Below, piece by piece: positions 38,503 through 56,753 of a stretch of DNA of 64,000 nt. The stretch is from a bacterium (GTDB lineage: Bacteria; Hinthialibacterota; Hinthialibacteria; Hinthialibacterales; Hinthialibacteraceae), in contig CAXXMV010000001.1 of assembly GCA_963662285.2 (NCBI GenBank), positions 480,001-544,000 on the forward strand, in the 5' to 3' direction. Numbering within the stretch: position 1 is the stretch's first letter; every line of letters starts with the position of its first letter. A program made the translations under genes and the position numbers. The notes under the pieces are model-generated. The model did not search any database. It was not told where the DNA came from and worked only from the letters and a program-made list of their open reading frames with translations.

Positions 38503-38524
38503 ATAAATCTAAAACGATTGAAAT

Positions 38525-38695
38525 CTTCCTCAGGCTTGGGGAAGAGGGGTTTTTGTGAAATTACATAGTGTATCTTTGGTGGGTCAAAAAGCGCGACCCA
38601 CCCTACGCTTGGGTTGGTACACATCCCTCTCCCAAGATTGGGAGAGGTTAGGTGAGGGTTGATAGCGACCACCTTCGCATAGAAGAATAACCAAC
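38525..38695. repeat. Mosaic of a GTAG-type REP and boxC-like units
   Basis: 38578-38607 is the reverse complement of CGTAGGGTGGGTCGCGCTTTTTGACCCACC; 38619-38695 matches 8455-8528. Confidence 0.75.
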
Positions 38696-38712
38696 ATGAG
38701 AGGGCTGGTATC

Positions 38713-40833: not shown

Positions 40834-41610
40834 TCAAGATAATCCAATGCTAAATCCACCATCCACCGGCAGAACGACTCCGGTTACAAACTTAGCTGCT
40901 GGTGAGCATAGGTAGACTGCCGCGTGACCGATATCGTCGGTGTCTCCTCTGCAGTTCATGGGGGTGCGGCGCAGGACTTTCTCAAGCCGCTTGGGATCAT
41001 CATCAAAGGCGTTGCGGGAAATTTCGGTGATTATAAAACCGGGCGCGATGGCATTAACGCGAACGCCATGCGGAGACAACTCTGAGGCGAAGGTTTTGAC
41101 CAGCCCCAGGTAAGCCGATTTGGCGGCTGAGTAGGCTATGGTTTTCGACAACCCGATTATGGATGTCATCGAGGCGATAAATAAAACTGAACCATGCCCA
41201 TTCTTTATCATCTCCGGGGCAACCGCTTTGGTCAGCGAAAATGATCCCATGACATGGGTATTGATAAGCTGGTTGAATTCCTCGTTGGTTGTTTCCAAAG
41301 CGTCTTTTTTTAAGTGATTGCCTGCGTTGTTGATAAGAATTGTCGGCGACCCAACCTGCTCTGTCACCTTGGCGATTATGGCTGGAATTTCATCGATCTG
41401 CGACACGTCAAAAACTTCATAAGAGGCCTGCGAACCTATGGCCTGAACCGCTTCCTGGAGAGATTGCTCGCGTCGTCCTAACAAAACAACTTTAGCCCCG
41501 GCTTGCGCCAGGTTGTGGGACATGGACAAACCGATTCCGGTTCCTCCCCCTGTAATGATGGCTATCTCACCTTGCAGAGAGAATGGATTGGTGTTCATGA
41601 TTTTCTCCAT
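40834..41610 (-). CDS. SDR oxidoreductase, gluconate 5-dehydrogenase/KduD-like
   Basis: TGGGTGIG, NNAG, IASM, YSAAK, NAIAPG, VDGG. Confidence 0.85.
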   Translation of the reverse strand: MEKIMNTNPFSLQGEIAIITGGGTGIGLSMSHNLAQAGAKVVLLGRREQSLQEAVQAIGSQASYEVFDVSQIDEIPAIIAKVTEQVGSPTILINNAGNHLKKDALETTNEEFNQLINTHVMGSFSLTKAVAPEMIKNGHGSVLFIASMTSIIGLSKTIAYSAAKSAYLGLVKTFASELSPHGVRVNAIAPGFIITEISRNAFDDDPKRLEKVLRRTPMNCRGDTDDIGHAAVYLCSPAAKFVTGVVLPVDGGFSIGLS

Positions 41611-41703
41611 TTAAGTTCGAGCGGTTTCGTGAAAAGGCTTCTGTATGCGTTTCAATTTGGCCTTAGTGAAACTAGATGTATTTTGGAATCGAAGGTGATA
41701 GCA

Positions 41704-41742
41704 TCAAGGGCTGACCGCAATGCGGTCTTGCCCTTGGCGCCC
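41704..41742 (+). repeat. 39-bp palindromic repeat, copy 1 (inverted copy at 54115-54153)
   Basis: TCAAGGGCTGACCGCAATGCGGTCTTGCCCTTGGCGCCC; its reverse complement matches 54115-54153 at 38 of 39 positions. Confidence 0.85.
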
Positions 41743-41860
41743 GCCAATCCCTTCGGTTCTCTTCATACAAATATAAATTCATGACAACTGTATAGGGTTC
41801 TTTGACACACCGGCTAGAAGCCGATGCTCCCCATTCTATGATGCTTCCCACTCTATGATG

Positions 41861-42631
41861 CTATCCTAATAATTTTTCAAACGGGGGCGTGAATTCAAAA
41901 CCGGTGTAGGGATTATCCTGGAAATGCCGTATGGTCCATAAATAATACATGTGAAATCCCGGTGCGGAAACTTGTGAATGGTCGCGCTCATCGGTGATGC
42001 GAAGCAGATCGTGATTCTTCAACTTGTATACCGTCTCTCCCAGTTCGCCATGTCCATAACCCCAATCAGGTTCAAAACGGTAATAGTAAAGTTCCGGTTG
42101 AGAATGATGGTGGGGAGGATAACTGCTCCAACGCCCTGGGAAATTAATAACTTCGCCTAGCACCAGATTGGCTTCAGCTGGCGCGTTGCGCCGGTCGAAT
42201 ACGCATCGCACGATGCGGTAACTGGTATCATCCATCTGCCCCTTGCCGCGATGTTCGCTTTCTACTTCATCAGGCAAGTAGATTCGTTGTGGGAAGGTTT
42301 TCGCATTAGGCGTTTTGGTAATCGCCAATTCAGTCTGCGTCACCGCCTTAACCGTAACCGTGGTGTTGGGAGGAGAATGAACCGACCAGGGCGATTGTTC
42401 AATCAACGAAGTGCGATCAAACGCCGCCTGATTATTATCAATAACCAGGTCGCCGCTTCCTTTAAGCACCAGAATCGCGGTTTCCTGCTCGTCCGAAAAT
42501 GTTTGCGACTGCCCTGGCTCAAGCAAGAATATCCCGAAATCGAGTTGGGTTTCCTCATCATTTTCGAGGAATGGATTCCAGCCGCGTTCCAAGGATTTAT
42601 TTCTGAATTGAGTTAAGAGATCGTCTACCAT
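41861..42631 (-). CDS. iolB: 5-deoxy-glucuronate isomerase
   Basis: EHRGKG...RIVR, LVLGEV, GRWSSYPPHHH, ELYYYRF, YYLW. Confidence 0.9.
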   Translation of the reverse strand: MVDDLLTQFRNKSLERGWNPFLENDEETQLDFGIFLLEPGQSQTFSDEQETAILVLKGSGDLVIDNNQAAFDRTSLIEQSPWSVHSPPNTTVTVKAVTQTELAITKTPNAKTFPQRIYLPDEVESEHRGKGQMDDTSYRIVRCVFDRRNAPAEANLVLGEVINFPGRWSSYPPHHHSQPELYYYRFEPDWGYGHGELGETVYKLKNHDLLRITDERDHSQVSAPGFHMYYLWTIRHFQDNPYTGFEFTPPFEKLLG

Positions 42632-42647
42632 TATTAAGTACACCTTT

Positions 42648-43730
42648 CTAAAGAGGGATCATGCGGTCGCGAATAACTTTGACTAATGATTCATAGCCCC
42701 CCAGAAACTGGCTAAGAGTAATTTTGTTGGGGCCGTAATCATCAAACTGCTCCGGCGTCATACCATCCGGTTCGTAAGATTTGCGGAAATCTTCAAATTT
42801 ATTTTGCAACTCATCAAGAATTTTAGCATCCACTGGATTATCCATCCGGGGAATTGCTTTGATATCGGAATTGTTAAACTGCACCTGCCATTCGTAGGGG
42901 ATCGAAACCACCAGGTCGCCGCCGATAAACTCTGACCAATGCATGTGGCAGCGGTAAGCGGCTGAAAGCAGCCGGATGCGGTAGCCGCGTTCCTGATATA
43001 TCTGATAAGCCTTTTTCATGATGGCAACGCCAGCATAATTGAAATAGCCGGGATCAGTAATGATGCCATCCCTGCTTGCAACTTTGCGCAGCCAGTCGTC
43101 AATTCGCCCCACCATGATAGTGCAGACGGGCGACATATCATCTATACTTTTGCCTTCCGCCTCACGCCGTTTCAAGCCGCGCTCCACCGCCTCAGCCACG
43201 GCCACCGCCTGGGGAACGCTGAAACTGACGGTAGCGTTTATATTTACGCCGCGGTAAGTTACCTCTTCGATAGCTTTAACGCCTGCTGCAGAAACCGGGA
43301 TTTTAACCTGCATATTAGGCGCCAGGGTATCAAAATACACAGTTTGTTCAACGATGCGGTCAGTGTTATTCCATGATTTCGGGCTGGTCTGAATCGATAT
43401 ACGGCCTTTTTTACCTTTGTGTTTATCAAAAGCGGGTTTAAGCAGTTGAGCGCCTTTAACCGCCAATTCCTCAATAAGCATCCAGGTTATTTCGTCTTCG
43501 GAAGAACTGGGATTATCGCGCACCAGTTCATTTATGCGATCCGACCAGAGATGCATCTCTTTTTTCAATACATTACCGACAATAACCGGGTTGGTAGTAG
43601 CGCCAACAGCGCCATGACCGATTGCATAGGTAAGTTCTTCCTGTGAACACGAATCGTTCCAGAGATCGGTGCAGGTAGTGCAGGTCATTTCATGCAGGGG
43701 GCTTTTAAAGGAATTTGATTGATCATTCAT
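42648..43730 (-). CDS. Atypical transaldolase/FSA-fold class I aldolase
   Basis: LWNDS (Asp), GATTNP, QVKIP (Schiff-base Lys), INAT, MVGRIDDW, SAAYR. Confidence 0.88.
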   Translation of the reverse strand: MNDQSNSFKSPLHEMTCTTCTDLWNDSCSQEELTYAIGHGAVGATTNPVIVGNVLKKEMHLWSDRINELVRDNPSSSEDEITWMLIEELAVKGAQLLKPAFDKHKGKKGRISIQTSPKSWNNTDRIVEQTVYFDTLAPNMQVKIPVSAAGVKAIEEVTYRGVNINATVSFSVPQAVAVAEAVERGLKRREAEGKSIDDMSPVCTIMVGRIDDWLRKVASRDGIITDPGYFNYAGVAIMKKAYQIYQERGYRIRLLSAAYRCHMHWSEFIGGDLVVSIPYEWQVQFNNSDIKAIPRMDNPVDAKILDELQNKFEDFRKSYEPDGMTPEQFDDYGPNKITLSQFLGGYESLVKVIRDRMIPL

Positions 43731-44083
43731 AATTGATTTACCCTAACTTTTAATATCCGAATCATGAAAAATCGAAATAATATTAATTTTCCATATAAAA
43801 GGATAATAAAAACTTACGATTCAATAGTCTAGACAAGCCAACATGCCTTTCTGTAAAGTAAGCTGAAGCTATCTTGAATAATTGTTTTTTGTATTACTAT
43901 TTTGTGAATAAATAAAGTATCCTGATGATTTTCCTGATAATTCGCTTTTGTAATCGTTTTTTCTCTTTCAATAGAGTTTTATTCTGATTTTTCCTATAAT
44001 AACTGGTGCATCAAGTAATCCAGACGTGTTTTTAATAAAACTAATTTGTTTAAAAGAAACAAATATAAGGAGTCGCAATAAAT

Positions 44084-45559
44084 ATGAAGATTCTTAAAAA
44101 CTATATCAACGGGCAGTGGGTAGAGGCTGAAAACGAAGGATTAATAGATATCGAAAATCCCAGTACTGGCGAAATTCTGGCTCAAAATCCTCTTTCAACT
44201 ACCGCAGAAGCGAACCGCGCCATCAGCGCAGCGGCGGAAGCCTTCAAAACCTGGAGCCATACTCCGGTTTCGCGTCGGGTGCAGCCATTATTCAAATTGG
44301 TTGAACTTCTCAAACAACACGAAGACGATATTGCCAGAGTACTGGTAGCAGAAATGGGCAAATCCATGGCCGACGCCCGCGCCGAGATGAAGCGGGTTCT
44401 GGAAAATTGCGAAGTGGCCTGTGGTATGCCGGTTCTGCAACAGGGCGATAAACTGATCGGCTGTTCATACGGGATCGACGGTGAGGTAATTCATCTACCC
44501 ATCGGAGTATTCACCATGATCGCCCCCTTCAATTTCCCCGCCATGGTTCCATTCTGGTTTATTCCCTACGCATTGGCGACGGGCAACACCTTCGTAATCA
44601 AAGCATCTTCCCAGGTTCCCATGACCATGCAATTGATCACTGAATACATAGACAAAGCCGGTTTCCCTGCTGGAACCTATAATCTGGTCAACGGCAGCCG
44701 TGCGGTTTCCAATGCTTTCATGGATAGCGAGACGGTCAAAGGCGTTTCACTGGTAGGCTCTACGCCGACCTGTAAGGTTATCGCTGAAAAATGCGCTAAA
44801 TCCAACAAACGGTTCCAGGCCATGGGTGGCGCCAAAAACCATCTGGTTATCATGCCTGACGCCAAAATTGATGAAGTAATCAGAAACATGGTCAGTTCCT
44901 GCTATGGATGCGCTGGTCAACGTTGCATGGCCTCATCGGCTATCGTGGCGGTTGGCGATGATGTTTACAAAGAGACCTGCGAAAAGTTCGTGGCAGATTC
45001 CAAGAATGTAATCACGGCCAATCCACTTGATCCCAAATACATTGAAGAAGGCATGTTGATGGGTCCGGTCATCTCGGCCAAAGCCAAAAAATTCATCCTG
45101 AGCATGATCGACAAAGGCATTGAAGAAGGCGCAACCCTGGCGCTGGATGGACGCGGTATCACCATTCCAGGCTGCGAAAAAGGTCATTTCATTGGCCCGA
45201 CGGTGTTCACCGACGTCAAACCTGGTATGGAAATCCACAAGACTGAGATATTCGGACCAGTCGTCATAATCATGAAAGCAGATTCATTTGATGAAGCGAT
45301 AGAGATTGTCAACAGCCATGAATACGGTAATGGCGCATCAATTTACACCCAAAACGGATATTACGCCCGTGAATTCAAACTACGCGTGGAATGCGGTATG
45401 ATCGGCGTTAATGTCGGCATCCCGGCGCCAGTGGCTTATCTACCCTTCGGCGGTATGAAAGAATCGCAATACGCCGACATCAAAGCGCAGGGTAAAGCGG
45501 TTATTAACTTCTTCACCGAAGACCGGATTATCACCGAGCGTTATTGGGACGAGAAATAG
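44084..45559 (+). CDS. iolA: CoA-acylating malonate/methylmalonate semialdehyde dehydrogenase
   Basis: APFNFPAM, VGST, MGGAKNH, GCAGQRCMA, EIFGPV, YGNGA, GVNVGIPAP; inositol gene context. Confidence 0.9.
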   Translation: MKILKNYINGQWVEAENEGLIDIENPSTGEILAQNPLSTTAEANRAISAAAEAFKTWSHTPVSRRVQPLFKLVELLKQHEDDIARVLVAEMGKSMADARAEMKRVLENCEVACGMPVLQQGDKLIGCSYGIDGEVIHLPIGVFTMIAPFNFPAMVPFWFIPYALATGNTFVIKASSQVPMTMQLITEYIDKAGFPAGTYNLVNGSRAVSNAFMDSETVKGVSLVGSTPTCKVIAEKCAKSNKRFQAMGGAKNHLVIMPDAKIDEVIRNMVSSCYGCAGQRCMASSAIVAVGDDVYKETCEKFVADSKNVITANPLDPKYIEEGMLMGPVISAKAKKFILSMIDKGIEEGATLALDGRGITIPGCEKGHFIGPTVFTDVKPGMEIHKTEIFGPVVIIMKADSFDEAIEIVNSHEYGNGASIYTQNGYYAREFKLRVECGMIGVNVGIPAPVAYLPFGGMKESQYADIKAQGKAVINFFTEDRIITERYWDEK

Positions 45560-45582
45560 TTCTGGCTTATATGATCAATATC

Positions 45583-45612
45583 AAAATCCGGGAGATTAAA
45601 CTCCCGGATTTT
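45583..45612 (+). terminator. Intrinsic terminator
   Basis: AAAATCCGGGAG-ATTAAA-CTCCCGGATTTT after iolA. Confidence 0.7.
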
Positions 45613-45676
45613 GAATAAAACTTGTTTCAATAAGCATAAACTAATGAGATATGTGACAATATCTTTAAGAGGAAAT

Positions 45677-46696
45677 ATGAATAATAAGAAAGAAAGAGCA
45701 CCAAGAAACCGAACTACTATATTAACAGATGCAGATAGGGATATTTTTTCTAAAAATTTGCTATTTTTAACCGAAAAAGTTACTCTAGATCATGTGATTT
45801 GTAAAACAATTAATCAGAATATACACGATGCAATTCTTCTGCTACCAGATAAAAGTATAGACCTACTTGTTGTTGATCCTCCTTATAATATGAATAAAAC
45901 TTTTAATGGTAGACAATTTGCTAAAAAAACGCTTGATGATTATGAGGAATGGTTAGACTCTTGGATTGGCGAACTTGTACGTATATTAAAAAAAACAGCA
46001 TCTATATATGTGTGTGGTGACTGGCAATCTTCTACCGCAATCCATAGAGTAACCCAAAAATATTTCTATGTAAGAAACAGAATAACATGGGAAAGAGAAA
46101 AGGGACGTGGCGCAAAAACAAATTGGAAAAATTGCTCTGAAGATGTTTGGTTTTGTACAATATCAAAAGAATACACATTTAATGTTGAATCAGTCAAGAT
46201 GAAACGCAAGGTTATTGCTCCATATACTGACAATAATGGCCAACCAAAAGACTGGGAAAAAACAGATAATGGTAAATTCAGAATTACACATCCATCAAAT
46301 CTGTGGAATGATATATCTATCCCATTCTGGTCTATGCCAGAAAACACTGATCATCCAACTCAAAAACCTGAAAAGCTGATAGCAAAACTTATTCTTGCGT
46401 CTTCGAATAAAGGAGATGTTGTATTTGATCCTTTTCTAGGTAGTGGAACTACATCAGTTGTGGCAAAAAAATTGGGTCGAAAGTATATTGGCGTGGAAAT
46501 TGATCGGGATTATTGTTGTCTATCTGAAAAACGTCTATCCATGGTTGATTATGACAATACGATACAAGGTTATTCTGGAGGACACTTTTGGGAACGCAAT
46601 ACTCTTGCAAAACAAACAAAATCTAATGGCGACAAAAAGACAAATGCAAAGCCAGATAATCAACAAGTTTTGTTATTTGGAGAGAATATAATATAA
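45677..46696 (+). CDS. Type II DNA methyltransferase (N4-C/N6-A, beta class)
   Basis: VDPPYN precedes HPTQKP and DPFLGSGTT; AT-rich. Confidence 0.93.
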   Translation: MNNKKERAPRNRTTILTDADRDIFSKNLLFLTEKVTLDHVICKTINQNIHDAILLLPDKSIDLLVVDPPYNMNKTFNGRQFAKKTLDDYEEWLDSWIGELVRILKKTASIYVCGDWQSSTAIHRVTQKYFYVRNRITWEREKGRGAKTNWKNCSEDVWFCTISKEYTFNVESVKMKRKVIAPYTDNNGQPKDWEKTDNGKFRITHPSNLWNDISIPFWSMPENTDHPTQKPEKLIAKLILASSNKGDVVFDPFLGSGTTSVVAKKLGRKYIGVEIDRDYCCLSEKRLSMVDYDNTIQGYSGGHFWERNTLAKQTKSNGDKKTNAKPDNQQVLLFGENII

Positions 46697-46697
46697 T

Positions 46698-47360
46698 ATG
46701 AAAAGCAAAATATTTTATACTGATCACCATAATATTATCGGGGATAAGGTTAAAGACTATCTTAATGAACATGGTGATTTTCTGTCTCCACAAACTGCAC
46801 AAAGTACAAGGGCTGTAGGAGATGCTGTTGAAGGAATATTATCTGATAAATTTGATATATTTCTTGGTGATGCATGCAAAGAATATCAAAAAGACTTTGC
46901 AAGAAGATCAATGGCAGATTTGGCATTCAAAGATAACGATGATTTTTATTATGTTGTAGATGTTAAAACTCACCGAATAGAAACAAAATTCAATATGCCA
47001 AATCTTACATCCGTACAAAGGCTATCTAGACTTTATGAAGATGACAATAATTATTTTTCTATTTTAATTATAAAATATTCACTAACAGATATAACAGCAA
47101 CAATATCTGATGTTCTCTTTATACCAATTGAATTTTTGGGATGGGATTGTCTTACTATTGGTGCTTTAGGGTGGGGGCAGATTCAGATAGCCAATTCGAA
47201 TAATATTACTGTGAATGAAGGATACTCAAGAAAAAAATGGATGCTAAATCTCTGCGATGTTATGGCAGAGTTTTACCCCAAGGAGATTGCCAAAATAACA
47301 GATAGACTCAGTTATTTTGAGACACTAGTGTCCGGGATACGAGAGCAGAAAGTTCAATAA
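46698..47360 (+). CDS. Type II restriction endonuclease (PD-(D/E)xK); last 12 residues replaced by IS sequence
   Basis: Starts 1 bp after the MTase stop; STRAVGDAVE...ADLAF...VDVKT motif. The native tail KVKRFWEDKPDE* lies beyond the IS, with stop at 48873-48875. Confidence 0.8.
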   Translation: MKSKIFYTDHHNIIGDKVKDYLNEHGDFLSPQTAQSTRAVGDAVEGILSDKFDIFLGDACKEYQKDFARRSMADLAFKDNDDFYYVVDVKTHRIETKFNMPNLTSVQRLSRLYEDDNNYFSILIIKYSLTDITATISDVLFIPIEFLGWDCLTIGALGWGQIQIANSNNITVNEGYSRKKWMLNLCDVMAEFYPKEIAKITDRLSYFETLVSGIREQKVQ

Positions 47361-48828
47361 CCGTTTTAAAATACAAGAGTTAGATGAGGTAAAAACTTTT
47401 ATCGATATGAGATTGACTTTACTCTAAAACCATACTTTTTTTAGGGGATGGTTCATGAGTATCGAAAAAACAGTCTTTTCTCAATTGATGGAGTTATATT
47501 CTCCTTATGATTTTCGAAAATGCGTAGAGCGATATAACGGGAATTATCGAGTCAAAAAGTTTTTATGCCGAGATCAATATCTCTGTATGGCTTTTGCACA
47601 ATTAACCTATCGGGAAAGTCTACGAGATATTGAAATCTGTTTGCGTTCCATGCAAGAGCGGCTCTATCATATGGGTATACGGGGAAAAGTATCCCGCAGC
47701 ACATTAGCCGAAGCCAACGAGAAAAGAGATTGGCGTATCTATGCGGAATTTGCTCAGGTTCTGATTCATAGTGCGAGAGAATTATACGTTAATGAAGAGT
47801 TTGGCGTCCAACTCGATGAAACGGTATATGCTCTAGATGCCTCAACCATTGATCTGTGTTTATCGCTATTCCCCTGGGCGAGATTTCGTAAAAAGAAAGG
47901 AGCCGTCAAATTACATACTCTGATTGATCTGCGGGGGAATATTCCAGTCTTCATTCATATTACAAATGGTAAGGTTCATGATGTGAATGTCCTGGATATT
48001 CTGATTCCCGAACCGGGTTCGATTTATTTGATGGATCGGGGATATTTCGATTTTAGGCGTTTGTATACGTTAGATCAGGAGCGTGCCTTTTTTGTTACGC
48101 GCTTGAAAAAGAATACAAAATTTGAACGCGTCTATTCTCGTCCGGTCGATAAAAGTACGGGTTTGAGGTGCGATCAAACGATTAAACTGGTCAATGCTGA
48201 TTCGGTTAAGGATTATCCTGGTCATCTTCGTCGCGTGGGGTATTATGACAGGAAAACAGAAAGACGGTTTGATTATTTAACCAACAATTTCGCCGTCCCG
48301 GCATTAACGGTTGCCGATCTTTTTCGGTGTCGTTGGCAGGTAGAATTGTTCTTTAAATGGATCAAGCAACATTTGCGTATCAAGACGTTTTATGGAACAT
48401 CGGAAAACGCTGTTAAAACACAAATCTGGACCGCTATATCAGTCTATGCATTGGTGGCGATTCTCAGGAAGCAGTTGAACCTGGAACAAAGTTTGTATAC
48501 GATTCTTCAAGTGTTAAGCGTAACACTTTTCGAGAAGAGACCGATTCATCAATTATTTGCTGAACCGGAAATGATGAATCTAGTATTTGTGGAGAATGAT
48601 CGGTTTCCATTATTCGAGGGTCTGGAAAACGAATGGGAATGAGCAATTCAATGATAAAAGTTGTGAGATTGAAAAATGTCAGTTTCTACACTTTTTATGT
48701 AAGTTCTAATAAAGAGAAAATGCAAAAAAGCCTTATTTTGGGGACTTTTTAAAGTGCAGTTTACGCTTTTCTCTATACTGCACTTCATAAACCCTTTAAA
48801 TTCAAAGAGTAACAACCGGACACTAGTG
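47323..48828 (+). mobile_element. IS4-family insertion sequence, 1506 bp
   Basis: 13-bp perfect TIRs CACTAGTGTCCGG / CCGGACACTAGTG; 9-bp target duplication ATTTTGAGA at 47314-47322 and 48829-48837. Confidence 0.96.
47455..48642 (+). CDS. IS4-family DDE transposase (DUF4372 + DDE)
   Basis: MAFAQLTYRESLRDIE, ALDASTI, KLHTL, MDRGY, RWQVELFFKWIKQHL. Confidence 0.95.
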   Translation: MSIEKTVFSQLMELYSPYDFRKCVERYNGNYRVKKFLCRDQYLCMAFAQLTYRESLRDIEICLRSMQERLYHMGIRGKVSRSTLAEANEKRDWRIYAEFAQVLIHSARELYVNEEFGVQLDETVYALDASTIDLCLSLFPWARFRKKKGAVKLHTLIDLRGNIPVFIHITNGKVHDVNVLDILIPEPGSIYLMDRGYFDFRRLYTLDQERAFFVTRLKKNTKFERVYSRPVDKSTGLRCDQTIKLVNADSVKDYPGHLRRVGYYDRKTERRFDYLTNNFAVPALTVADLFRCRWQVELFFKWIKQHLRIKTFYGTSENAVKTQIWTAISVYALVAILRKQLNLEQSLYTILQVLSVTLFEKRPIHQLFAEPEMMNLVFVENDRFPLFEGLENEWE

Positions 48829-48998
48829 ATTTTGAGAAAGTTAAAAGGTTTTGGGAAGATAAGCCAGATGAATAAAGTCATATCCATTCCCCAAGTGGAT
48901 ATGTATCGATCCAAACCTTCGGTATCGATTTCATTTGTCAGTCTTATTATGCCAGTAAAGCAAAGTTTTAACTACTATACCAATGATTGGAGCAGATC

Positions 48999-49574
48999 AT
49001 GAAAGTTGTAGCCTTCAATGGAAGCGCCCGTAAAGATGGCAATACCGCCATAATGGTTAAACAGGTATTAAGCGAACTGGAAAAAGAGGGCATTGAAACA
49101 GAAATGATCCAATTTTCCGGTAAAGCCATCCGGGGATGTTTGGCCTGTTACCAATGCTTTGAAAAAAAGGATCAACGTTGCTCGAATAAGAGCGACATTG
49201 TGAATGAATGCATCGAAAAGATCATCGAAGCGGATGGAATTATCCTGGCTTCACCGACCTATTTTTCAGACGTTTCAGCGGAACTCAAGGCGTTGATCGA
49301 CCGGGCTGGTCTGGTGGCCAAGGCCAATGACAACCTTTTCCGGCGTAAAGTAGGCGCCGCAGTGGTATCCGTCCGGCGCGGAGGTTCAATCCACGCCTTC
49401 GATACCATAAACCACTTTTACCTGCTCGGAGAAATGATCGTCCCCGGTTCTATTTACTGGAATATGGGATTCGGGTTGGATAAGGGAGAGGTTGAGAAAG
49501 ACGAGGAAGGACTTAGAACTATGCAAGCCCTGGGTCAGAACATGGCCTGGCTGCTGAAGAAGATAAACGCTTAG
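48999..49574 (+). CDS. Iron-sulfur flavoprotein / multimeric flavodoxin
   Basis: NGSARKDGNT, CLACYQC...C, ASPTYF, RRGG, YWN. Confidence 0.9.
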   Translation: MKVVAFNGSARKDGNTAIMVKQVLSELEKEGIETEMIQFSGKAIRGCLACYQCFEKKDQRCSNKSDIVNECIEKIIEADGIILASPTYFSDVSAELKALIDRAGLVAKANDNLFRRKVGAAVVSVRRGGSIHAFDTINHFYLLGEMIVPGSIYWNMGFGLDKGEVEKDEEGLRTMQALGQNMAWLLKKINA

Positions 49575-49595
49575 AATAATTCCAATATAAAACAC

Positions 49596-49635
49596 CGGGC
49601 CGCTCAGCAAGAAGATTGCCGGGCGGCCCGTTTTT
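49596..49635. terminator. Bidirectional terminator-like hairpin
   Basis: CGGGCCGCTCAGCAA...TTGCCGGGCGGCCCGTTTTT between convergent genes. Confidence 0.6.
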
Positions 49636-49651
49636 GTATTCTTTGTATCTA

Positions 49652-51523
49652 TTATAGGAAATATTTCTCTTTTTTGATCATTTCTACATAATTCTTTCTG
49701 GCTTCCTGGACGGATTCGATGCCGGAAACTTCCGGTACAGCTACATCCCACCAGGAATCATAACCAGGGGCGTATTCTTCTGGATCGATATCAATGGCGA
49801 TCATGGTTGTTTTATCGAATGTCTTGGCTTTTTCCAGAGCCTGGACAATTTCATCCTTGGTGCTGGCTTTAATAACATTGGCGCCCAGACTGGCTGCGTT
49901 GGCGGCGAAATCGATGGGTAGATTTTCTCCGGCCAGCAATCCTGATTGGGGTTCACGGAACTTGAACTGGTTACCGAAACCATGGCTGCCGCAAGACTTA
50001 GCCAGGCCGCGGATGCAGTTGAAGCCATAGTTGTTCAAGAAAACAATAGTAATTTTGTATCCTTCCTGAATCGAGGTAACTATTTCATTGGAGAGCATCA
50101 AGTAGGAGCCATCGCCGATCATGACATATACTTCGCCATCGGGATTAGCCATTTTAACGCCGAAACCGCCTGCAATTTCATAGCCCATGCAGGAGTAACC
50201 ATATTCCAGGTGATATCCCTTATATGACTTGGTGCGCCATAATTTGTGCAGGTCGCCAGGCAATCCACCCGCAGCGCAAACCATGACATCGTTTGATCCT
50301 GCGAAATTGGTGACCGCGCCGATGACTTCGCCCTGGCTGATTTGCTTGTTACCCAGGTTGAAGATGCGCTCTTCCTCTTTACGCCAATCGCTTATAAGGG
50401 CTGATATTTCAGACGCATAGGCCTCATCGGTCTTGCGTCCTGCATCTTTGAGAGCAGCTGTTAAATCGGTTAGTCCGACTTTTGCGTCGCAGATCAATGG
50501 AACAGCCGAATGTTTCACTGCATCAAAATTACAGACGTTTAAGCCTATGAACTTCACATCAGGATTCTGGAACTGTGTTTTTGAAGCGGTGGTGAAATCA
50601 CTTAAACGGGTCCCGATATTAATTACCAGATCAGCTTTTAGCGCCATCTGGTTAGCAGCTGAGGTTCCCGTAACGCCAATCGCGCCTAAGTTATATTTAT
50701 GATCCCACAGTAAAGAGCCTTTACCGGCTTGGGTTTCGCTGACTGGGATGCCGGTTGATTCACAGAAAGCCTCTAATTCCTTGGATGCTTCTGAATAATG
50801 TACGCCGCCGCCGGCGATAACCAGGGGGCGTTTGCTCTCTTTGATCCATTGAACGGCTTTATCCAACATAGCCTTTTCGGGTCTTTGGCGGGGTATGTGA
50901 TAGACCCGTTTGTTGAAGAATTCCTCTGGATAATCGAATGCTTCGGTCTGCACATCCTGGGGAATAGCGATGGTTACCGCGCCCGTGTCGGCTGGGCTGG
51001 TTAAGACGCGCATAGCCTCAGGCAGGGCGGTTATAATCTGGTCGGGGCGATTGATGCGATCCCAATATTTACTTACAGGCTTGAAGCAATCGTTCACCGA
51101 AATATCTTGAGACTGCTGTGATTCCAATTGCTGCAATACCGGGGCCACGTTACGCCGCGCGAAGATGTCGCCGGGCAACAGCAACACGGGAATGCGGTTG
51201 ATGGTGGCCGTAGCGGCGCCGGTAATCATATTGGTAGCGCCCGGTCCGATGGAGCTGGTGCAGATAAATGCTTTCATGCGCCGGTTTTGTTTGGCGAAGG
51301 CTGTGGCGGTATGAACCATGCCCTGCTCGTTACGGCATTGCATGTAACGCATTTCATCTTTATATTCTTCCAGCGCCAATCCTAATCCAGCAACCATGCC
51401 GTGTCCGAATATGCCAAAGACTCCCTCGAAAAAGCGGTTTTCAACTCCATCCCTCTCCACATATTGGTTGCACAGAAACTTGAGCAACGCTTGCGCCATA
51501 GTTAATCGGATTGTTTTACCCAT
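49652..51523 (-). CDS. iolD: 3D-(3,5/4)-trihydroxycyclohexane-1,2-dione acylhydrolase (ThDP)
   Basis: IRLTMAQAL, GIFGHG, NEQGM, SIGPGATNM, LPGDLHKLW, YHLEYGYSCMGYE, GDGSYLM, SWWDV. Confidence 0.97.
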   Translation of the reverse strand: MGKTIRLTMAQALLKFLCNQYVERDGVENRFFEGVFGIFGHGMVAGLGLALEEYKDEMRYMQCRNEQGMVHTATAFAKQNRRMKAFICTSSIGPGATNMITGAATATINRIPVLLLPGDIFARRNVAPVLQQLESQQSQDISVNDCFKPVSKYWDRINRPDQIITALPEAMRVLTSPADTGAVTIAIPQDVQTEAFDYPEEFFNKRVYHIPRQRPEKAMLDKAVQWIKESKRPLVIAGGGVHYSEASKELEAFCESTGIPVSETQAGKGSLLWDHKYNLGAIGVTGTSAANQMALKADLVINIGTRLSDFTTASKTQFQNPDVKFIGLNVCNFDAVKHSAVPLICDAKVGLTDLTAALKDAGRKTDEAYASEISALISDWRKEEERIFNLGNKQISQGEVIGAVTNFAGSNDVMVCAAGGLPGDLHKLWRTKSYKGYHLEYGYSCMGYEIAGGFGVKMANPDGEVYVMIGDGSYLMLSNEIVTSIQEGYKITIVFLNNYGFNCIRGLAKSCGSHGFGNQFKFREPQSGLLAGENLPIDFAANAASLGANVIKASTKDEIVQALEKAKTFDKTTMIAIDIDPEEYAPGYDSWWDVAVPEVSGIESVQEARKNYVEMIKKEKYFL

Positions 51524-51909
51524 TGCTGATTACCCTTTCGCTTTGTAATAGAAAACAGTTAAAATTGTTTCTTGCTAAATTTCAAGGACATTAATCGATT
51601 GATTTATCCGAATACATGTTACAGTTATTGAATAACATTTTCAAAATTCTTACAATATCATCCCGACCATCATCCAAAAAATAACTTCCTGCATACTTCA
51701 TATAAAAAAAATTGTCTATAATCAAGGGAAGCATCAAATCTATGGGGTACAAATTTCACAAATCAATGTTCTTCCTCAAGAATGATTTACCGCTTATATG
51801 CTTTTAATTCTTCAGTCCTAGTTGATTTTCACCATAGTTTATGCGAAAGTTTCCTTCAGAAGAATAAATGATATAAAATTCTAGTTTTTCAAAAGATATA
51901 ACTCATATA

Positions 51910-52914
51910 ATGCGTTTATTATTTATCCAAAAAACAATAATTGAACTTTTCAAGGCAACACTGGGAAAACTCCATTTTTCTAAACATGGAAGATGGCTCG
52001 GACCGCTGATCGGATTGCTATTTCTCTGTGTAATCCTATGGATCGCAACTCCCCATTTCTTAACGGTTTCCAACCTAACCAATGTAGCCCAACAATCTTC
52101 GATCAACGCTATCATTTCCATAGGGATGACTTTTGTCATTCTTACGGCGGGCATCGATCTATCGGTGGGTTCCGTCCTGGCATTTGTGGGGGTAGTTTTA
52201 GCCAGCGTTTTGCATGCCAACGTACCTCCTGCCATTGCTATACCAATCGCATTACTGGTTGGAATGATGGCTGGAGCAATTAACGGCGTCCTGATCAGTT
52301 GGGGAAAACTGCCGCCATTTATTGTCACTTTGGGAATGATGAGCGTGGCGCGCGGCGGCGCCTTAATCTTCACCGGGGGCAGACCGATATCCGGTTTTAC
52401 TGAAGGATTCCGCGATATATCAAATAATGACTTTCTTTTTCTACCGGTTCCCGTCTGGATTATGATTGCGCTCTACGTTGCGGCGCATTTCATCCTGACC
52501 AGGACGCGTTTCGGGCGTTACACCTATGCCATAGGCGGTAATGAATCGGCGGCGTATCTATCAGGCATAAACGTTCGCGTTTACAAGATGATCGTCTACG
52601 CCCTGTCCGGTCTGACCTGCGCTATTGCGGCAATCCTGCTTACCTCCCGCCTGAATTCAGCTCAACCTCTGGCGGGCATCAACTATGAACTGGACGCCAT
52701 CGCCGCAACTGTTATCGGCGGAACCAGCCTGATGGGAGGCGAAGGCTGCATCAGTGGAACATTGGTAGGAGCGCTTATTATCCAGGTTTTACGCAACGGA
52801 CTGAATTTAATGGAAATTTCATCAAATTTCCAGAATGTGGTGATTGGCAGCGTAATTGTGATTGCCGCGTTAATGGATATGTATCTGAAATCGCGGTCGC
52901 AAAAAAAACATTAG
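51910..52914 (+). CDS. Ribose/inositol-type ABC transporter permease
   Basis: GIDLSVGS, LPPFIVTLG, FGRYTYAIGGNE, YELDAIAATVIGG. Start codon uncertain. Confidence 0.92.
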   Translation: MRLLFIQKTIIELFKATLGKLHFSKHGRWLGPLIGLLFLCVILWIATPHFLTVSNLTNVAQQSSINAIISIGMTFVILTAGIDLSVGSVLAFVGVVLASVLHANVPPAIAIPIALLVGMMAGAINGVLISWGKLPPFIVTLGMMSVARGGALIFTGGRPISGFTEGFRDISNNDFLFLPVPVWIMIALYVAAHFILTRTRFGRYTYAIGGNESAAYLSGINVRVYKMIVYALSGLTCAIAAILLTSRLNSAQPLAGINYELDAIAATVIGGTSLMGGEGCISGTLVGALIIQVLRNGLNLMEISSNFQNVVIGSVIVIAALMDMYLKSRSQKKH

Positions 52915-52926
52915 TAGGAGAATAAA

Positions 52927-53862
52927 ATGAAACGATGGCCATTGGTTATTATCATTGGATTAATAATTTCGGTTTTTGTTTGTGGCTGCAACCGGGCGCC
53001 TCAATCCGTCAATCAGAAATTGCGTATCGGCTTTGTTATGAAAACGCTTAGCAATCCGTTCTTCATTCAAATGGAGGAGGGGGCTAATGAAGCGGCGCAA
53101 AACCTGGGCGTTGAACTGGTCGTACAAGCCGCCGACCGGGAAATCGATGTGGAACGGCAATTGCAGATCATCGAAAACCTGATCGAAACCAAGGTTGACG
53201 CGCTATGCATTACGCCAAGCGGTTCGCGTGAAATTGTAAGCGCCATCGCCAAAGCCAACGCGGCCAATATTCCCGTCTTGATTGTGGATACAAAAGTAGA
53301 TGCGCAAACAGCCAAGGATATGAAGGTTAATTACGTCACCTTTATCGGTTCGGATAATTACCAAGGCGGGTTATTGGCTGGTCAGCATTTCGCAAAAAAA
53401 TTTAAGGAGACGACCGAACTGGTGATTCTAGAGGGAATTCCAGGCCATGAAACCCATGATTCCCGCCGCCAGGGATTTCTGGATGGAATCAAAGAGGCGC
53501 CTCAGTTAAAGATCGTCTCTTCGCAACCCGCCAATACCGAACGCGACCAGGGCTTTAATGTATTTCAAAACATCCTGCAAACTCATCCTGATGTCAAAGC
53601 CCTGTTCTGCACCAACGATATGATGGCTTTGGGCGCCGTGGAAGCAATATCCGCCGCAGGCAAAGAAGGCCAGATCGCCGTCATTGGCTTTGACGCAGTT
53701 GATGAGGCGCGCGAAGCAATCAAGCAGGGACGTATGGAAGGCTCCATCGCCCAGTCTCCCGATGAAATGGGACGCGTCGCAGTGCAATGCGCCGTAAAAT
53801 TTCTAAATGGCGAGAGCATCCCGGATACAGTACCGGTCAAAATTGAATTAATAACAAAATAA
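52927..53862 (+). CDS. Sugar ABC substrate-binding lipoprotein (RbsB-like)
   Basis: Lipobox FVCGC; LSNPFF, GSDNYQGG, NDMMALG, GFD. Confidence 0.92.
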   Translation: MKRWPLVIIIGLIISVFVCGCNRAPQSVNQKLRIGFVMKTLSNPFFIQMEEGANEAAQNLGVELVVQAADREIDVERQLQIIENLIETKVDALCITPSGSREIVSAIAKANAANIPVLIVDTKVDAQTAKDMKVNYVTFIGSDNYQGGLLAGQHFAKKFKETTELVILEGIPGHETHDSRRQGFLDGIKEAPQLKIVSSQPANTERDQGFNVFQNILQTHPDVKALFCTNDMMALGAVEAISAAGKEGQIAVIGFDAVDEAREAIKQGRMEGSIAQSPDEMGRVAVQCAVKFLNGESIPDTVPVKIELITK

Positions 53863-53924
53863 ATCACCGTTAATGATTATAATATTAACGATTATGCTAT
53901 TAACCATTCAACTATATTGGCGCA

Positions 53925-54204
53925 ATCCCCTCTCCCGCCGGGAGAGGGCAAGGGTGAGGGGGAATTATAGATCACCAATGTAGGGCGCGCCCCTTGTGGG
54001 CGCCCGTTAAACACAACAACCATAGATTAAACAACGCATAGGGTGGATCACGCCTTACCGACCCACCAAGAGTAATTTGTTGATCGGGCAACGCATAGGA
54101 TGGACTGAAATTTTGGGCGCCAAGGGCAAGACCGCATTGCGCTCAGCCCTTGATTAAATAAACCTACGCGTAGGGTGGGCTAAAAGCGATAGCGCAGCCC
54201 ACCA
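53925..54204. repeat. BIME-like mosaic of boxC-like, GTAG-REP and 39-bp palindromic units
   Basis: 53927-53962 is the reverse complement of 62335-62370 (1 mismatch). Also GTAGGGCGCGCCCCTTGTGGGCGCCC, TAGGGTGGATCACGCCTTACCGACCCACC (similar to the reverse complement of 61095-61126), the 54115-54153 palindrome and CGTAGGGTGGGC...GCCCACC. Confidence 0.8.
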
Positions 54205-54249
54205 AGAACAACCCAAGAATAATTATTGAATACAATCAGGAGAAAACAA

Positions 54250-55152
54250 ATGAGTCAAATTAAAGTCGCAAATGCTCCCTGTTCATGGGGCGTACTGGAA
54301 TTTGATCTGGATGGAGAAGCCGCTGGTTATGCAAAGGTTCTGGATGAGATGGTCCAATCGGGTTACGTAGGGACTGAATTCGGCGACTGGGGATTCATGC
54401 CGACTGATCCTGATGTCCTGCGTCAGGAACTGGAAAAACGCAACCTGGCCATGTTGGGCGCTTTTGTACCGGTTCAGCTGATTAATCCCGACGCCCACCA
54501 AGATGGCGCGTCAACCGCGATAAAGACGGCTAAACTGCTTGCAGCGGTGAACGAGACGCCATTTATCGTTTTGGCTGACGATAATGGAACCGTCGAGAAT
54601 CGCACCAAAAAAGCCGGACGCATCCAGCCCGAAGACGGCCTTAATGATGAAGAATGGAAAGTTTTCGCTAAGGGCGCTGAACTGGTCGCCATGATGGTTA
54701 AAGAAGAGACTGGCGTCCGTACAGTATTTCATCATCACTGCGGCGGTTACATCGAAACTCCATCTGAGGTCGAGCGTCTTCTTGCTCTAACCAATCCCGA
54801 ATTGCTTGGTCTATGCTTCGATACAGGACACTTTGAATATGGCGGCGGAAATGCTCTGGAAGGATTAAAATCATACACCGACCGTATCTGGCATGTGCAT
54901 TTCAAAGATTGTCATCCAGGCATCGCCAACCAGATACGTAACAATCAGCAAGATTACTTCGAAGCGGTAAAGAACGGCGTCTTCTGTGAATTGGGTAAGG
55001 GTTCGGTAAATTTTCCGGCTGTGTTGAGTGAATTAAAAAAACAAGGATATCAGGATTGGATTGTGGTCGAGCAGGATGTTCTGCCCGGTATGGGAACCCC
55101 CATAGAAAGCGCCATGCGTAACCGAGAATACTTGAAATCACTAGGATTGTAA
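54250..55152 (+). CDS. iolE: 2-keto-myo-inositol (myo-inosose-2) dehydratase
   Basis: ANAPCSWG, FHHHCG, CFDTGH, HVHFKD, FCELGKG, VVEQD. Confidence 0.9.
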   Translation: MSQIKVANAPCSWGVLEFDLDGEAAGYAKVLDEMVQSGYVGTEFGDWGFMPTDPDVLRQELEKRNLAMLGAFVPVQLINPDAHQDGASTAIKTAKLLAAVNETPFIVLADDNGTVENRTKKAGRIQPEDGLNDEEWKVFAKGAELVAMMVKEETGVRTVFHHHCGGYIETPSEVERLLALTNPELLGLCFDTGHFEYGGGNALEGLKSYTDRIWHVHFKDCHPGIANQIRNNQQDYFEAVKNGVFCELGKGSVNFPAVLSELKKQGYQDWIVVEQDVLPGMGTPIESAMRNREYLKSLGL

Positions 55153-55209
55153 TAATCCAGTTTTATTTATAGATCGACAGGAAAACCAAAATATCAAAGG
55201 ATATTGATA

Positions 55210-56232
55210 ATGACCAATACAAATATGATCAATATTGGATTAATCGGAACTGGCCGGATAGGCAAGGTTCATGCTGAGCATATCGCCTATAGATTTCCCA
55301 ACGCCCGTTTGGAAGCAATATGCGATGTTAATCTTGCATCGGCGCAAGAGTGCGCAGACCGTTTCAATGTAGCCAACGTTTCCAACAACGCGAAATCAAT
55401 CTTCGCCAATGATAAGGTAGACGCTGTGTTGATCTGCTCTTCAACCAACACCCATGCGTCTTTGTGCGAAGAAGCAGCCCAGGCTAAAAAGCATATTTTT
55501 TGTGAAAAGCCTATCGATTTAGACTTGGCGAGGATCGACAAGACATTGGAAATAGTTAAAAAGTCGGGCGTGAAATTCATGGCTGGCTTCAACCGCCGTT
55601 TCGACCCCAATTTTTTAGAGGTCTATCGACAAATCCGGGATGGCGTAATCGGCGAACCGCACCTGCTGCGCATAACCAGCCGCGACCCAGGGCCTCCCCC
55701 GATTGAATATGTAAAAATATCGGGCGGTATGTTTCTGGATATGACCATCCATGATTTTGATATGGCGCGTTATCTGGTGGGCAGCGAAATAGTCTCGGTA
55801 TACGCCGCGGGTGGAGTCTTGGTTGATCCAAAAATCGGCGAAGCGGGCGATATCGACACGGCTCTGATCACGCTGCATTTCGCCAACGGCGCGATTGGCG
55901 CTATCGATAACAGCCGCCAAGCCATCTACGGCTATGACCAGCGCGTGGAAGTATTCGGCTCCAAAGGCATGGTGTCAGCGGAAAACAATACGCCTACCCG
56001 CACTCAGATCAGCAACGCGGACGGCGTCCATTCACCACTGCCGCTCAATTTCTTCATGGATCGTTATATTGATTCATATATCACCGAAATTGAACGCTTT
56101 ATCTCTTCTATTATTGAGGATAAAGAATCCGACGTAACCGGAATCGATGCACGCTATCCGGTAGTTATAGCATTGGCGGCGCAACTCTCAATGAAAGAAA
56201 AACGCCCTGTTGCGTTGAGTGAGATTAAATAA
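55210..56232 (+). CDS. iolG: myo-inositol 2-dehydrogenase
   Basis: IGTGRIG, FCEKP, GFNRRFDP, TSRDP, DMTIHDFD, YGYDQRVE. Confidence 0.93.
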   Translation: MTNTNMINIGLIGTGRIGKVHAEHIAYRFPNARLEAICDVNLASAQECADRFNVANVSNNAKSIFANDKVDAVLICSSTNTHASLCEEAAQAKKHIFCEKPIDLDLARIDKTLEIVKKSGVKFMAGFNRRFDPNFLEVYRQIRDGVIGEPHLLRITSRDPGPPPIEYVKISGGMFLDMTIHDFDMARYLVGSEIVSVYAAGGVLVDPKIGEAGDIDTALITLHFANGAIGAIDNSRQAIYGYDQRVEVFGSKGMVSAENNTPTRTQISNADGVHSPLPLNFFMDRYIDSYITEIERFISSIIEDKESDVTGIDARYPVVIALAAQLSMKEKRPVALSEIK

Positions 56233-56260
56233 AAGTTCTAATCATCAAATTGCCGTATTC

Positions 56261-56292
56261 CAAAAGCCCATTTTTTTATGGGCTTTTTTTTG
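56261..56292 (+). terminator. Intrinsic terminator
   Basis: AAAGCCCAT...ATGGGCTTTTTTTT after iolG. Confidence 0.7.
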
Positions 56293-56322
56293 AAATTTTC
56301 TCTTTACAAACGAAACATACAT

Positions 56323-56336
56323 GTTACAATTGTAAC
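56323..56336. promoter_or_regulatory. BlaI/MecI/CopY-type operator
   Basis: Perfect palindrome GTTACAATTGTAAC (TACA-NN-TGTA core), 27 bp upstream of the blaI-like ATG. Confidence 0.8.
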
Positions 56337-56363
56337 TATTATAATCGAATCAAGGAGTTCATC

Positions 56364-56750
56364 ATGGTCAGACGTTCTTCCGATCCACTATCCTCCAGCG
56401 AATGGCAGGTCATGAAAATTGTATGGGAATTAAAATCCTGCGCGGTGCGTGATGTGTATAACCGGATATCCCAGGAATTCAATTGGAATCAAAACACCGT
56501 TCGCACATTCTTAAACCGATTAGTCGACAAGGGATTTCTCAAAACCAAGCAGGTTGGGAATTGCCTGGTTTACAGTCCTAAGCGTCCATTTCTTCGCGCA
56601 ATCTATAACGCGGCAGATGATCTGCTAGACAAAACTATTACAGGCCAAACCGGGCCGGTTCTCTCCTATCTGCTAGAAAAAAGCGAATTATCGGCGGGAG
56701 AGATCAAAGAACTACGGGCATTACTCGATAAACATGCCGAAAAGGAATGA
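56364..56750 (+). CDS. BlaI/MecI/CopY family repressor
   Basis: LSSSEWQVMKIVW, WNQNTVRTFLNRLVDKG; AAGGAG RBS before ATG 56364. Confidence 0.92.
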   Translation: MVRRSSDPLSSSEWQVMKIVWELKSCAVRDVYNRISQEFNWNQNTVRTFLNRLVDKGFLKTKQVGNCLVYSPKRPFLRAIYNAADDLLDKTITGQTGPVLSYLLEKSELSAGEIKELRALLDKHAEKE

Positions 56751-56753
56751 ATC

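Follow-up and report, generated by a model that had tools for sequence, protein, structure and literature searches.

A transaldolase-fold gene in the usual place of iolC and iolJ: a candidate kinase-free branch of inositol catabolism

Inositol derives from phytate and phospholipids and ranks among the major carbon sources of plant and dietary origin. The usual lower branch of its catabolism consists of the kinase IolC followed by the class II aldolase IolJ. The compound at the head of this branch, 5-dehydro-2-deoxy-D-gluconate (DKG), is a 2-ketohexose whose CH2OH-CO end is free; it has a fructose-like D-threo configuration at C3/C4, no hydroxyl at C5 and a carboxylate at C6. An inositol (iol) locus was analysed in a bacterium of the phylum Hinthialibacterota, within a stretch of 64,000 nucleotides (positions 480,001 to 544,000 of contig CAXXMV010000001.1, assembly GCA_963662285.2) that is called the window below and in whose numbering coordinates are given unless another locus is named. 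Next to its iolB-type gene lies a gene for a 360-amino-acid protein of the transaldolase (TAL)/FSA fold, P0001, whose relatives are referred to here as the TAL family.

Compared with the canonical pathway of the Bacillus subtilis type, the locus has the same IolG, IolD and IolA, each above its NCBIfam cut-off, together with an IolE-like and an IolB-type protein, and the predicted end products, triose/hexose phosphate and malonate semialdehyde, are also the same. It differs in that IolC, an iol-linked IolJ and the DUF2090 aldolase domain were not found in the genome, and the TAL-fold gene occupies their usual place. The locus represents a variant form of the known iol pathway: a TAL-fold enzyme stands in for IolJ and, in most genomes including this one, also for IolC.

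The closest described precedent in reaction logic is the sulfofructose transaldolase (sulfo-TAL) pathway of sulfoquinovose breakdown. According to passages of two papers (PMC7491151, PMC9594981), 6-deoxy-6-sulfofructose is cleaved there to sulfolactaldehyde, and the C3 unit is passed to glyceraldehyde-3-phosphate (GAP) to give fructose-6-phosphate (F6P). The parallel drawn in a first-pass annotation of the window is one of logic: an isomerase supplies a ketohexose with an anionic group at C6, carbons C1-C3 move to GAP by way of the transaldolase (SftT; BmSF-TAL, PDB 8bc3), and the anionic C3 aldehyde goes to a dehydrogenase. The two systems differ in other respects. Kinship between the enzymes is remote (phmmer comparison of 8bc3 and P0001, E 3e-4, 23 bits over a short stretch), SF-TAL has ~220 residues against 360, the proposed substrate of P0001 carries a carboxylate as its anion and is deoxy at C5, and the neighbours of P0001 are iol genes, with no sulfoquinovose genes among them.

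We judge it somewhat better than an even chance that the locus encodes a myo-inositol pathway in which one TAL-fold enzyme replaces both IolC and IolJ, by transferring the dihydroxyacetone unit of unphosphorylated DKG to GAP with formation of F6P and malonate semialdehyde. By family assignment, IolG, IolE and IolD would convert inositol to 5-deoxy-glucuronate, which the IolB-type isomerase would turn into DKG. The keto group of DKG, still unphosphorylated, would form a Schiff base with Lys143 of P0001; cleavage between C3 and C4 (ketose numbering) would then free malonate semialdehyde while the enzyme keeps the dihydroxyacetone unit. Handing over this unit to GAP would yield F6P, the divergently transcribed IolA would convert malonate semialdehyde to acetyl-CoA and CO2, and F6P would re-enter glycolysis by a pyrophosphate (PPi)- or ATP-dependent phosphofructokinase (PFK), renewing the GAP acceptor. 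That the TAL family supplies the carbon-carbon-cleaving enzyme of these iol clusters is considerably more probable than this full scheme.

Both phosphofructokinases are present in the genome (ATP-PFK 632 bits, PPi-PFK 477 bits versus a cut-off of 273). The saving of ATP foreseen in the first-pass annotation stands only for F6P that is processed by PPi-PFK or used for biosynthesis; when F6P is split by way of ATP-PFK, the net cost equals that of IolC. No description of a transaldolase in inositol catabolism was found in the full-text literature searched, a body of text that most subscription journals and supplements fall outside.

The iol gene set and its linkage to the TAL family

The gene content of the window was derived from its listing of open reading frames (ORFs) and from Pfam and NCBIfam profile scans. 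The TAL gene (42648-43730, (-) strand; Pfam TAL_FSA 121 bits, cut-off 27) precedes a gene on the same strand for an IolB-type 5-deoxy-glucuronate isomerase of the KduI/IolB family (41861-42643; Pfam KduI 167 bits). Translation of the isomerase probably begins with the ATG at 42631, and 16 nt separate this ATG from the TAL stop codon (42650-42648). A divergent intergenic region of 353 bp (43731-44083) separates the TAL gene, the IolB-type gene and a short-chain dehydrogenase (SDR) gene from iolA (44084-45559, (+) strand), which encodes a CoA-acylating (methyl)malonate-semialdehyde dehydrogenase (MMSDH; TIGR01722, 500 bits, cut-off 448.5). The upper pathway is represented by IolD, the trihydroxycyclohexane-1,2-dione acylhydrolase (49652-51523, (-) strand; TIGR04377, 943 bits, cut-off 715), an IolE-like inosose dehydratase (54226-55152, (+) strand; TIGR04379, 212 bits, E 1e-62, below the cut-off of 290) and the inositol 2-dehydrogenase IolG (55204-56232, (+) strand; TIGR04380, 469 bits, cut-off 355). 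The profile scans thus bore out the first-pass description of the locus, which had listed iolG, iolE, iolD, iolB, iolA and parts of an ABC transporter, no PfkB kinase or class II aldolase in the window, and a TAL gene ending 16 bp before the iolB ATG and diverging from iolA.

The lack of iolC and iolJ extends from the window to the genome (7.29 Mb in 8 contigs, rated 92.5% complete). No IolC was found there above the 300-bit cut-off: the IolC model matches five PfkB genes, of which the best (146.5 bits) is a KDG kinase adjoining the KDPG aldolase Eda. The model for bifunctional IolC (NF047869) reached at best 66.6 bits against a cut-off of 600, and the DUF2090 aldolase domain (PF09863) had no match genome-wide. 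Two class II aldolases (PF01116) occur on contigs C6 and C3 in unrelated contexts, one being a type-B FBA and the other lying beside an FGGY kinase and a DapA-like aldolase; neither is near iol genes. The iol genes are single-copy, and the IolB-type isomerase is the only such gene in a genome-wide profile search.

Homologues of P0001 were collected by a scan of one genome per species, which gave 196 relatives; the best 80 loci were kept, and their neighbours were identified within 10 kb by tblastn with the window proteins. These 80 loci span Omnitrophota-like metagenome-assembled genomes (MAGs), Chloroflexota (mostly Anaerolineae), Spirochaetota, Bacillota (Mahella, Marinisporobacter), Actinomycetota and two Asgard archaea. 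Inside 10 kb, 42 of the 80 loci carry two or more of IolB, IolD, IolE and IolG. The 40 loci that have at least 5 kb on each side include 30 with two or more of the four, 26 with at least three and 20 with all four, so the co-location with iolB/D/E/G that the first-pass annotation had envisaged does recur across several phyla. The TAL gene has IolB less than 300 bp away in 29 loci and IolD in 24, and IolA is present in 19 of the 42 TAL loci holding at least two core iol genes.

In an unbiased clustering of the neighbouring ORFs, the commonest families were IolD (37 loci), IolG-like proteins (35), IolE (34), a LacI regulator (27), IolB and IolA (23). IolB appeared in 26 loci as a Chloroflexi type, which passes the IolB model (314 bits), and in 11 as the window type, which scores ~91 bits. 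The IolE-like protein of the window is 56-76% identical to its counterparts in most TAL-linked iol clusters, a few matches being only 27-31% identical. Apart from IolC (4 loci), no kinase family recurred among the neighbour clusters of the TAL loci.

With respect to the enzymes that TAL is proposed to replace, a class II aldolase was found in 0 of the 80 TAL loci and a PfkB protein in 6. IolC above the cut-off is present in 7 of 78 TAL-bearing genomes (2/40 and 5/38), leaving 71 without it. For Chloroflexota, an even sample of 301 genomes was taken, of which 57 contain IolD; one of these (G305, unpublished) was dropped, leaving 56. IolC occurs in 16 of the 56, the TAL family in 9 and both in none (hypergeometric p = 0.036, uncorrected for kinship), and one further Chloroflexota genome (G236) has an IolC-model match of 294.7 bits, just below the cut-off. 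The mutual exclusion with iolC that the first-pass annotation had expected therefore holds as a tendency, IolC being rare beside the family and never combined with it in these Chloroflexota, but it is not strict, given the four loci described below in which IolC adjoins TAL. With this qualification, all the computational checks suggested in that annotation turned out in its favour.

The remaining IolD-positive Chloroflexota include 30 genomes with neither IolC nor TAL. Among 28 IolD loci from 26 of these, most have IolD alone or with an IolE-like gene, and IolB is nearby in three (L113, L116, L123); these genomes are thus hardly informative about the lower branch. As a separate observation, full-length IolD above the cut-off lacks any iol neighbour inside 10 kb in L110, L115, L124, L127, L129 and L131 and, further, in L132, L134, L135, L137 and L138, all from Chloroflexota genomes lacking IolC and TAL. 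The role of such isolated IolD proteins may lie outside inositol catabolism.

Fold and active site of P0001

P0001 belongs to the TAL/FSA superfamily (PF00923) by profile, by its TIM-barrel fold and by its Schiff-base lysine. All NCBIfam models for transaldolases and FSA score far below their cut-offs (PRK03343 120 versus 367, TIGR00876 87 versus 234, TIGR00874 48 versus 396 bits). Relatives are very numerous: at least 8000 scored candidates were all significant, the best 120 at 62-96% identity, and a library clustered at 50% contains 345 representatives of the family at E <= 1e-30. Their database names read only 'transaldolase' or 'transaldolase family protein'. No solved structure of a family member was found in the PDB, where the best sequence match was the Corynebacterium glutamicum transaldolase at 66 bits.

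An AlphaFold (AF2) model built from a 44-sequence alignment has a pLDDT of 96.6, and the nearest folds retrieved by Foldseek were 3clm (Neisseria gonorrhoeae), 7bbw and 3r5e (C. glutamicum), with TM scores of 0.80-0.82 at 20-22% identity. The architecture is of the long type, and an insertion follows the seventh predicted strand. P0001 represents a distinct and conserved subfamily within the transaldolase fold. Two fusions, which link the fold with the inositol pathway, were encountered in the family: an IolE-like TIM barrel of the xylose-isomerase type joined to TAL (P0127, 655 aa), and TAL fused with a KduI/IolB domain (P0158, 566 aa), the latter of which may be an assembly or frameshift artefact.

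P0001 was aligned with Escherichia coli TalB and FsaA using MAFFT, and conservation was assessed over 121 close members and 8 distant representatives. TalB residues D17, N35, E96, K132, N154, T156, F178, R181 and R228 correspond to D26, N47, Q114, K143, N165, T167, M206, R209 and R260 of P0001, respectively, and each of the nine is invariant in 121/121 members. K143, on strand 4, is the Schiff-base lysine and aligns with TalB K132 and FSA K85. The catalytic Glu of classical transaldolases is absent, Q114 taking its place in 121/121 close members and 8/8 distant representatives, and the HMMER alignment of P0001 to 3r5e likewise gives Gln. In common with the long-type transaldolases (3r5e, 3clm) and TalB, P0001 has the fold, the Schiff-base Lys, the equivalents of Asn154 and Thr156 and both phosphate-binding Arg residues; besides its 20-22% identity, it differs by Glu96 to Gln, by Phe178 to Met and by a family-specific H-x-H-W-S-E patch after R260 (H262 in 117/121, H264 in 114/121, W265 in 121/121, E267 in 118/121).

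With E. coli FSA (FsaA), P0001 has in common the Gln at the transaldolase-Glu position (Q59 = Q114) and the Asp, Asn, Lys and Thr; it differs in having Met206 for FSA Tyr131 and in its long-type architecture of 360 residues versus 220. The water-binding triad of FSA (Q59, T109, Y131) is thus incomplete, Q114 and T167 being present and the Tyr position being Met206, an assignment made through the alignment of both to TalB Phe178 and a shared GR/NR motif. As described in excerpts of PMC13259622, the water held by Q59-T109-Y131 is central in FSA, the Asp/Asn pair contacts the C1-OH of the donor, and residue swaps between FSA and TalB interconvert aldolase and transaldolase activity (citing Stellmacher 2015). 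The PDB titles of 4rz6 and 4xz9 name the switch variants E96Q/F178Y and E60Q/F132Y.

Both the Glu of transaldolases and the Tyr of the aldolase are thus missing from the family. A hydrophobic Met in place of the Phe would fit an enzyme that holds the dihydroxyacetone intermediate until the acceptor comes. The retained Asp/Asn pair favours a donor with a free C1 hydroxyl, and the retained arginines favour an anionic tail on the substrate; Arg209, Arg260 and the His262/His264 patch would bind the carboxylate where the phosphate of F6P would sit. Since Gln114 and Met206 stand where transaldolases have Glu and Phe and FSA has Gln and Tyr, the proton relay must differ from both, and one may speculate that it runs through the substrate's own carboxylate or through the His/Glu267 patch.

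The same residues bear on whether P0001 might be a true aldolase of the FSA kind, releasing free dihydroxyacetone and malonate semialdehyde from DKG with no acceptor, an option that the first-pass annotation had left beside the transfer to GAP. The Gln that it has in common with FSA and the interconversion of the two activities by swaps at these residues (PMC13259622, in the excerpts above) speak for such an enzyme. Against it stand the Met that replaces the proton-shuttling Tyr in all 121 members and the distribution of dihydroxyacetone kinase: no Dak1 was found in the genome, only 12 of the 42 genomes with iol-linked TAL have one, and Dak1 does not recur among the neighbour families of TAL loci. 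Release of free dihydroxyacetone is accordingly disfavoured, and we give it roughly one chance in eight.

Evidence against the proposed route and alternative roles

Several observations weigh against transfer of a dihydroxyacetone unit from unphosphorylated DKG to GAP. The catalytic Glu of transaldolases is missing from the proposed transaldolase, and we know of no mechanism that covers a Gln/Met site. The IolB-type and IolE-like proteins of the window are the best and only matches to their families, yet they score below the NCBIfam equivalog cut-offs (for IolB, TIGR04378, 91.6 versus 205 bits). For IolB, proteins from canonical IolB-IolC-IolJ clusters score equally low (L107 91.8 bits, L106 71 bits), so the low score of the window protein reflects a divergent IolB lineage and not another function. 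In addition, MAGs are incomplete, which makes every absence of a gene soft.

A more specific difficulty comes from four loci (L017, L074, L078, L086) in which IolC (364-398 bits) is found directly beside TAL, without IolJ. At these loci TAL may use the phosphorylated compound as its substrate, or both routes may run side by side. Such loci suggest a family that replaces IolJ only: after phosphorylation by IolC or by another PfkB protein, for example a KDG kinase paralogue, it would cleave 6-phospho-5-dehydro-2-deoxygluconate (DKGP) to dihydroxyacetone phosphate (DHAP) and malonate semialdehyde, or pass the DHAP unit to GAP. The exclusion of TAL being stricter with IolJ than with IolC fits such a role, as does the 146.5-bit score of the genome's own KDG kinase on the IolC model. 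The scarcity of IolC above cut-off in TAL-bearing genomes and the lack of any other recurring kinase family in the clusters argue the other way. So does the Asp26/Asn47 pair, whose counterparts in FSA and transaldolases touch the donor's free C1-OH and which is invariant also in the IolC-adjacent members; to our knowledge, no TAL/FSA-family enzyme accepts a C1-phosphorylated donor. We consider replacement of IolJ only to be unlikely.

The IolC genes of other TAL-bearing genomes lie apart from TAL, in a separate canonical cluster of IolB, IolC and class II aldolase in G057 and G029 and ~20 kb from TAL in G048. PfkB matches below the cut-off (198-251 bits) were considered as hidden IolC candidates and rejected: none of the ten examined lies beside iol core genes, which also speaks against phosphorylation of DKG by such a kinase, and two have only a weak IolG-like oxidoreductase nearby.

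P0001 is moreover the sole TAL_FSA match found in its own genome, and a housekeeping (classical) role for it may apply in genomes without another transaldolase. In its simplest form, this would make the protein an ordinary pentose-phosphate transaldolase that is encoded beside iolB by chance or only to keep F6P and GAP in balance. The retained phosphate-binding Arg residues would suit such a function, and in L062 the TAL gene is followed by a split transketolase, a pentose-phosphate-like pair. A classical transaldolase is, however, present beside the family member in 35 of 41 TAL-bearing genomes (30 of the 35 score at least 200 bits, often in frames of Tal-Pgi size, and five are short types of 218-252 aa), while one of the remaining genomes has a weak second match and five have the family member only. 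The family is therefore an extra paralogue and not the housekeeping enzyme in most TAL-bearing genomes. The Gln in every member, the low scores on the NCBIfam transaldolase equivalogs and the recurrence of the iol linkage across phyla likewise make an ordinary transaldolase improbable. In some anaerobes, transaldolase can be bypassed by a PPi-PFK, an enzyme that is present here. No classical transaldolase was found in this genome, and its non-oxidative pentose phosphate pathway may do without a standard one or depend on P0001.

The range of the family beyond inositol genes is a further point. No IolD match (E <= 1e-100) was found in 18 of the 32 genomes whose TAL had not been seen beside IolD, among them a complete Spirochaetia chromosome (G018) and several Thermoleophilia, and in the family tree these IolD-less TALs are interleaved with the iol-linked ones. 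DKG is therefore not the sole substrate of the family, which probably handles more than one anionic ketose. An assignment of subfamilies by context was dropped, as the tree gives no separate clades for iol-linked and unlinked members. In Spirochaetota without IolD (L024, L027), TAL belongs to an SDR-GntR-TAL unit, in the Spirochaetaceae extended to SDR-GntR-TAL-aldehyde dehydrogenase (ALDH). In L027 and L091 TAL adjoins a CoA-acylating ALDH closest to the sulfoacetaldehyde dehydrogenase SauS (570 bits versus a cut-off of 600), and a SauS-type ALDH beside the Spirochaetes TAL fits an anionic C3 aldehyde as product.

These contexts raise the alternative of a family with general activity on 6-carboxy ketohexoses (5-ketogluconate, fructuronate, DKG), the substrate in the window being made by the SDR and not by IolB. 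The occurrence of the family without IolD, the association of some members with SDR, GntR and acylating ALDH genes, and the SDR gene found after IolB in the window as well as in L013 and L014 are in keeping with this. Because that SDR is confined to the closest relatives and adjacency to IolB and IolD dominates, we regard it as a rather remote prospect for this locus. In the Thermoleophilia L054 (5867-9796) and L068 (7057-12419), TAL lies beside a pyrogallol-hydroxytransferase-like molybdopterin oxidoreductase and a MobA/MobB gene, with no obvious link to inositol.

Split transketolases, encoded as N- and C-terminal subunit genes, were also met at iol loci. In a Chloroflexota genome without IolC and TAL (G365), such a pair (L113, 12967-14834) heads a row of IolG-IolB-IolD-IolG-IolE; homologous subunits lie after TAL in L062 (11825-13652) and 6.5 kb from IolD in L116 (703-2480). 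The arrangement recalls the split SqwGH of the sulfo-transketolase pathway and, by analogy, points to a possible third lower branch of inositol catabolism, one based on a transketolase.

Returning to the proposed transfer from DKG to GAP, it can be placed in a broader view in which inositol catabolism has interchangeable lower modules mirroring sulfoglycolysis: IolC/IolJ, a carboxy-ketose transaldolase and, in some Chloroflexota, a split transketolase. The TAL module would then constitute a new activity, a DKG:GAP dihydroxyacetone transferase working without both known acid/base residues and, combined with PPi-PFK, would spare anaerobes of many phyla any investment of ATP. We advance this broader view tentatively, at somewhat under even odds.

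Should the TAL lower branch be real, it would account for the iol clusters of Chloroflexota, Omnitrophota-like bacteria, Spirochaetota, some Bacillota, Actinomycetota and Asgard archaea in which iolC and iolJ are lacking. It would also add a new reaction to the transaldolase family and a natural Gln/Met site to set against the engineered TalB and FSA switch variants, and it would carry the sulfoquinovose-type pattern, in which pentose-phosphate enzymes take over from a kinase and an aldolase, to a carboxylated sugar. The reaction is open to direct test with a handful of purified enzymes. Genome surveys score the inositol pathway by iolB/C/D/E, according to a passage of PMC9430895.

Accompanying genes and minor observations

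The SDR gene (40834-41610, (-) strand; adh_short_C2, 188 bits) lies downstream of IolB. Its nearest NCBIfam models (glucose 1-dehydrogenase, gluconate 5-dehydrogenase, KduD) all score below cut-off, and the counterparts in L013 and L014 are 73-75% identical. The enzyme might be a malonate semialdehyde reductase, or its substrate might be a different ketose acid.

Downstream of iolA, a 3-kb block (45611-48642, (+) strand) encodes an N6/N4 DNA methylase, an unknown 220-aa ORF and an IS4 transposase with DUF4372, as found by Pfam/NCBIfam scans. It separates iolA from a gene for an NADPH-dependent FMN reductase-family protein (48987-49574, (+) strand; Pfam FMN_red, 122 bits) that originally adjoined iolA, the two being adjacent in the closest relatives L013 and L014. 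The GC content falls to 0.355 at 46001-48000 within this block, which is an insertion outside the pathway; the methylase and the unknown ORF may form a restriction-modification pair. The FMN reductase-family protein is 86-89% identical in L013 and L014 and 60% identical in L023.

Between iolD and the IolE-like gene lie genes for a ribose-type ABC permease (51910-52914) and a substrate-binding protein (52927-53862), both on the (+) strand and identified by profile scans, which probably serve inositol uptake. No ABC ATPase gene was found within the iol cluster. An RbsA-type ATPase on contig C4 (C4:44210-45703) is 53% identical to the ATPase of the related locus L015.

A shared iol operator was sought as 14-mers with up to two mismatches in five intergenic regions. 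The only strong match was a palindromic, REP-like repeat of ~41 bp in the IolB-SDR spacer (41703-41742) and in the spacer between the binding-protein and IolE-like genes (54115-54155). With ~244 copies over six of the eight genome contigs, the repeat is not specific to iol genes and was rejected as an operator.

The locus is flanked by genes of other functions. Upstream lie phosphonate catabolism genes (37596-40077), encoding the phosphonoacetaldehyde hydrolase PhnX (338 bits) and PbfA, an (R)-1-hydroxy-2-aminoethylphosphonate ammonia-lyase (719 bits). Right after iolG, a BlaI/CopY-type repressor gene and a gene for an 836-aa BlaR1-like sensor occupy 56250-59264.

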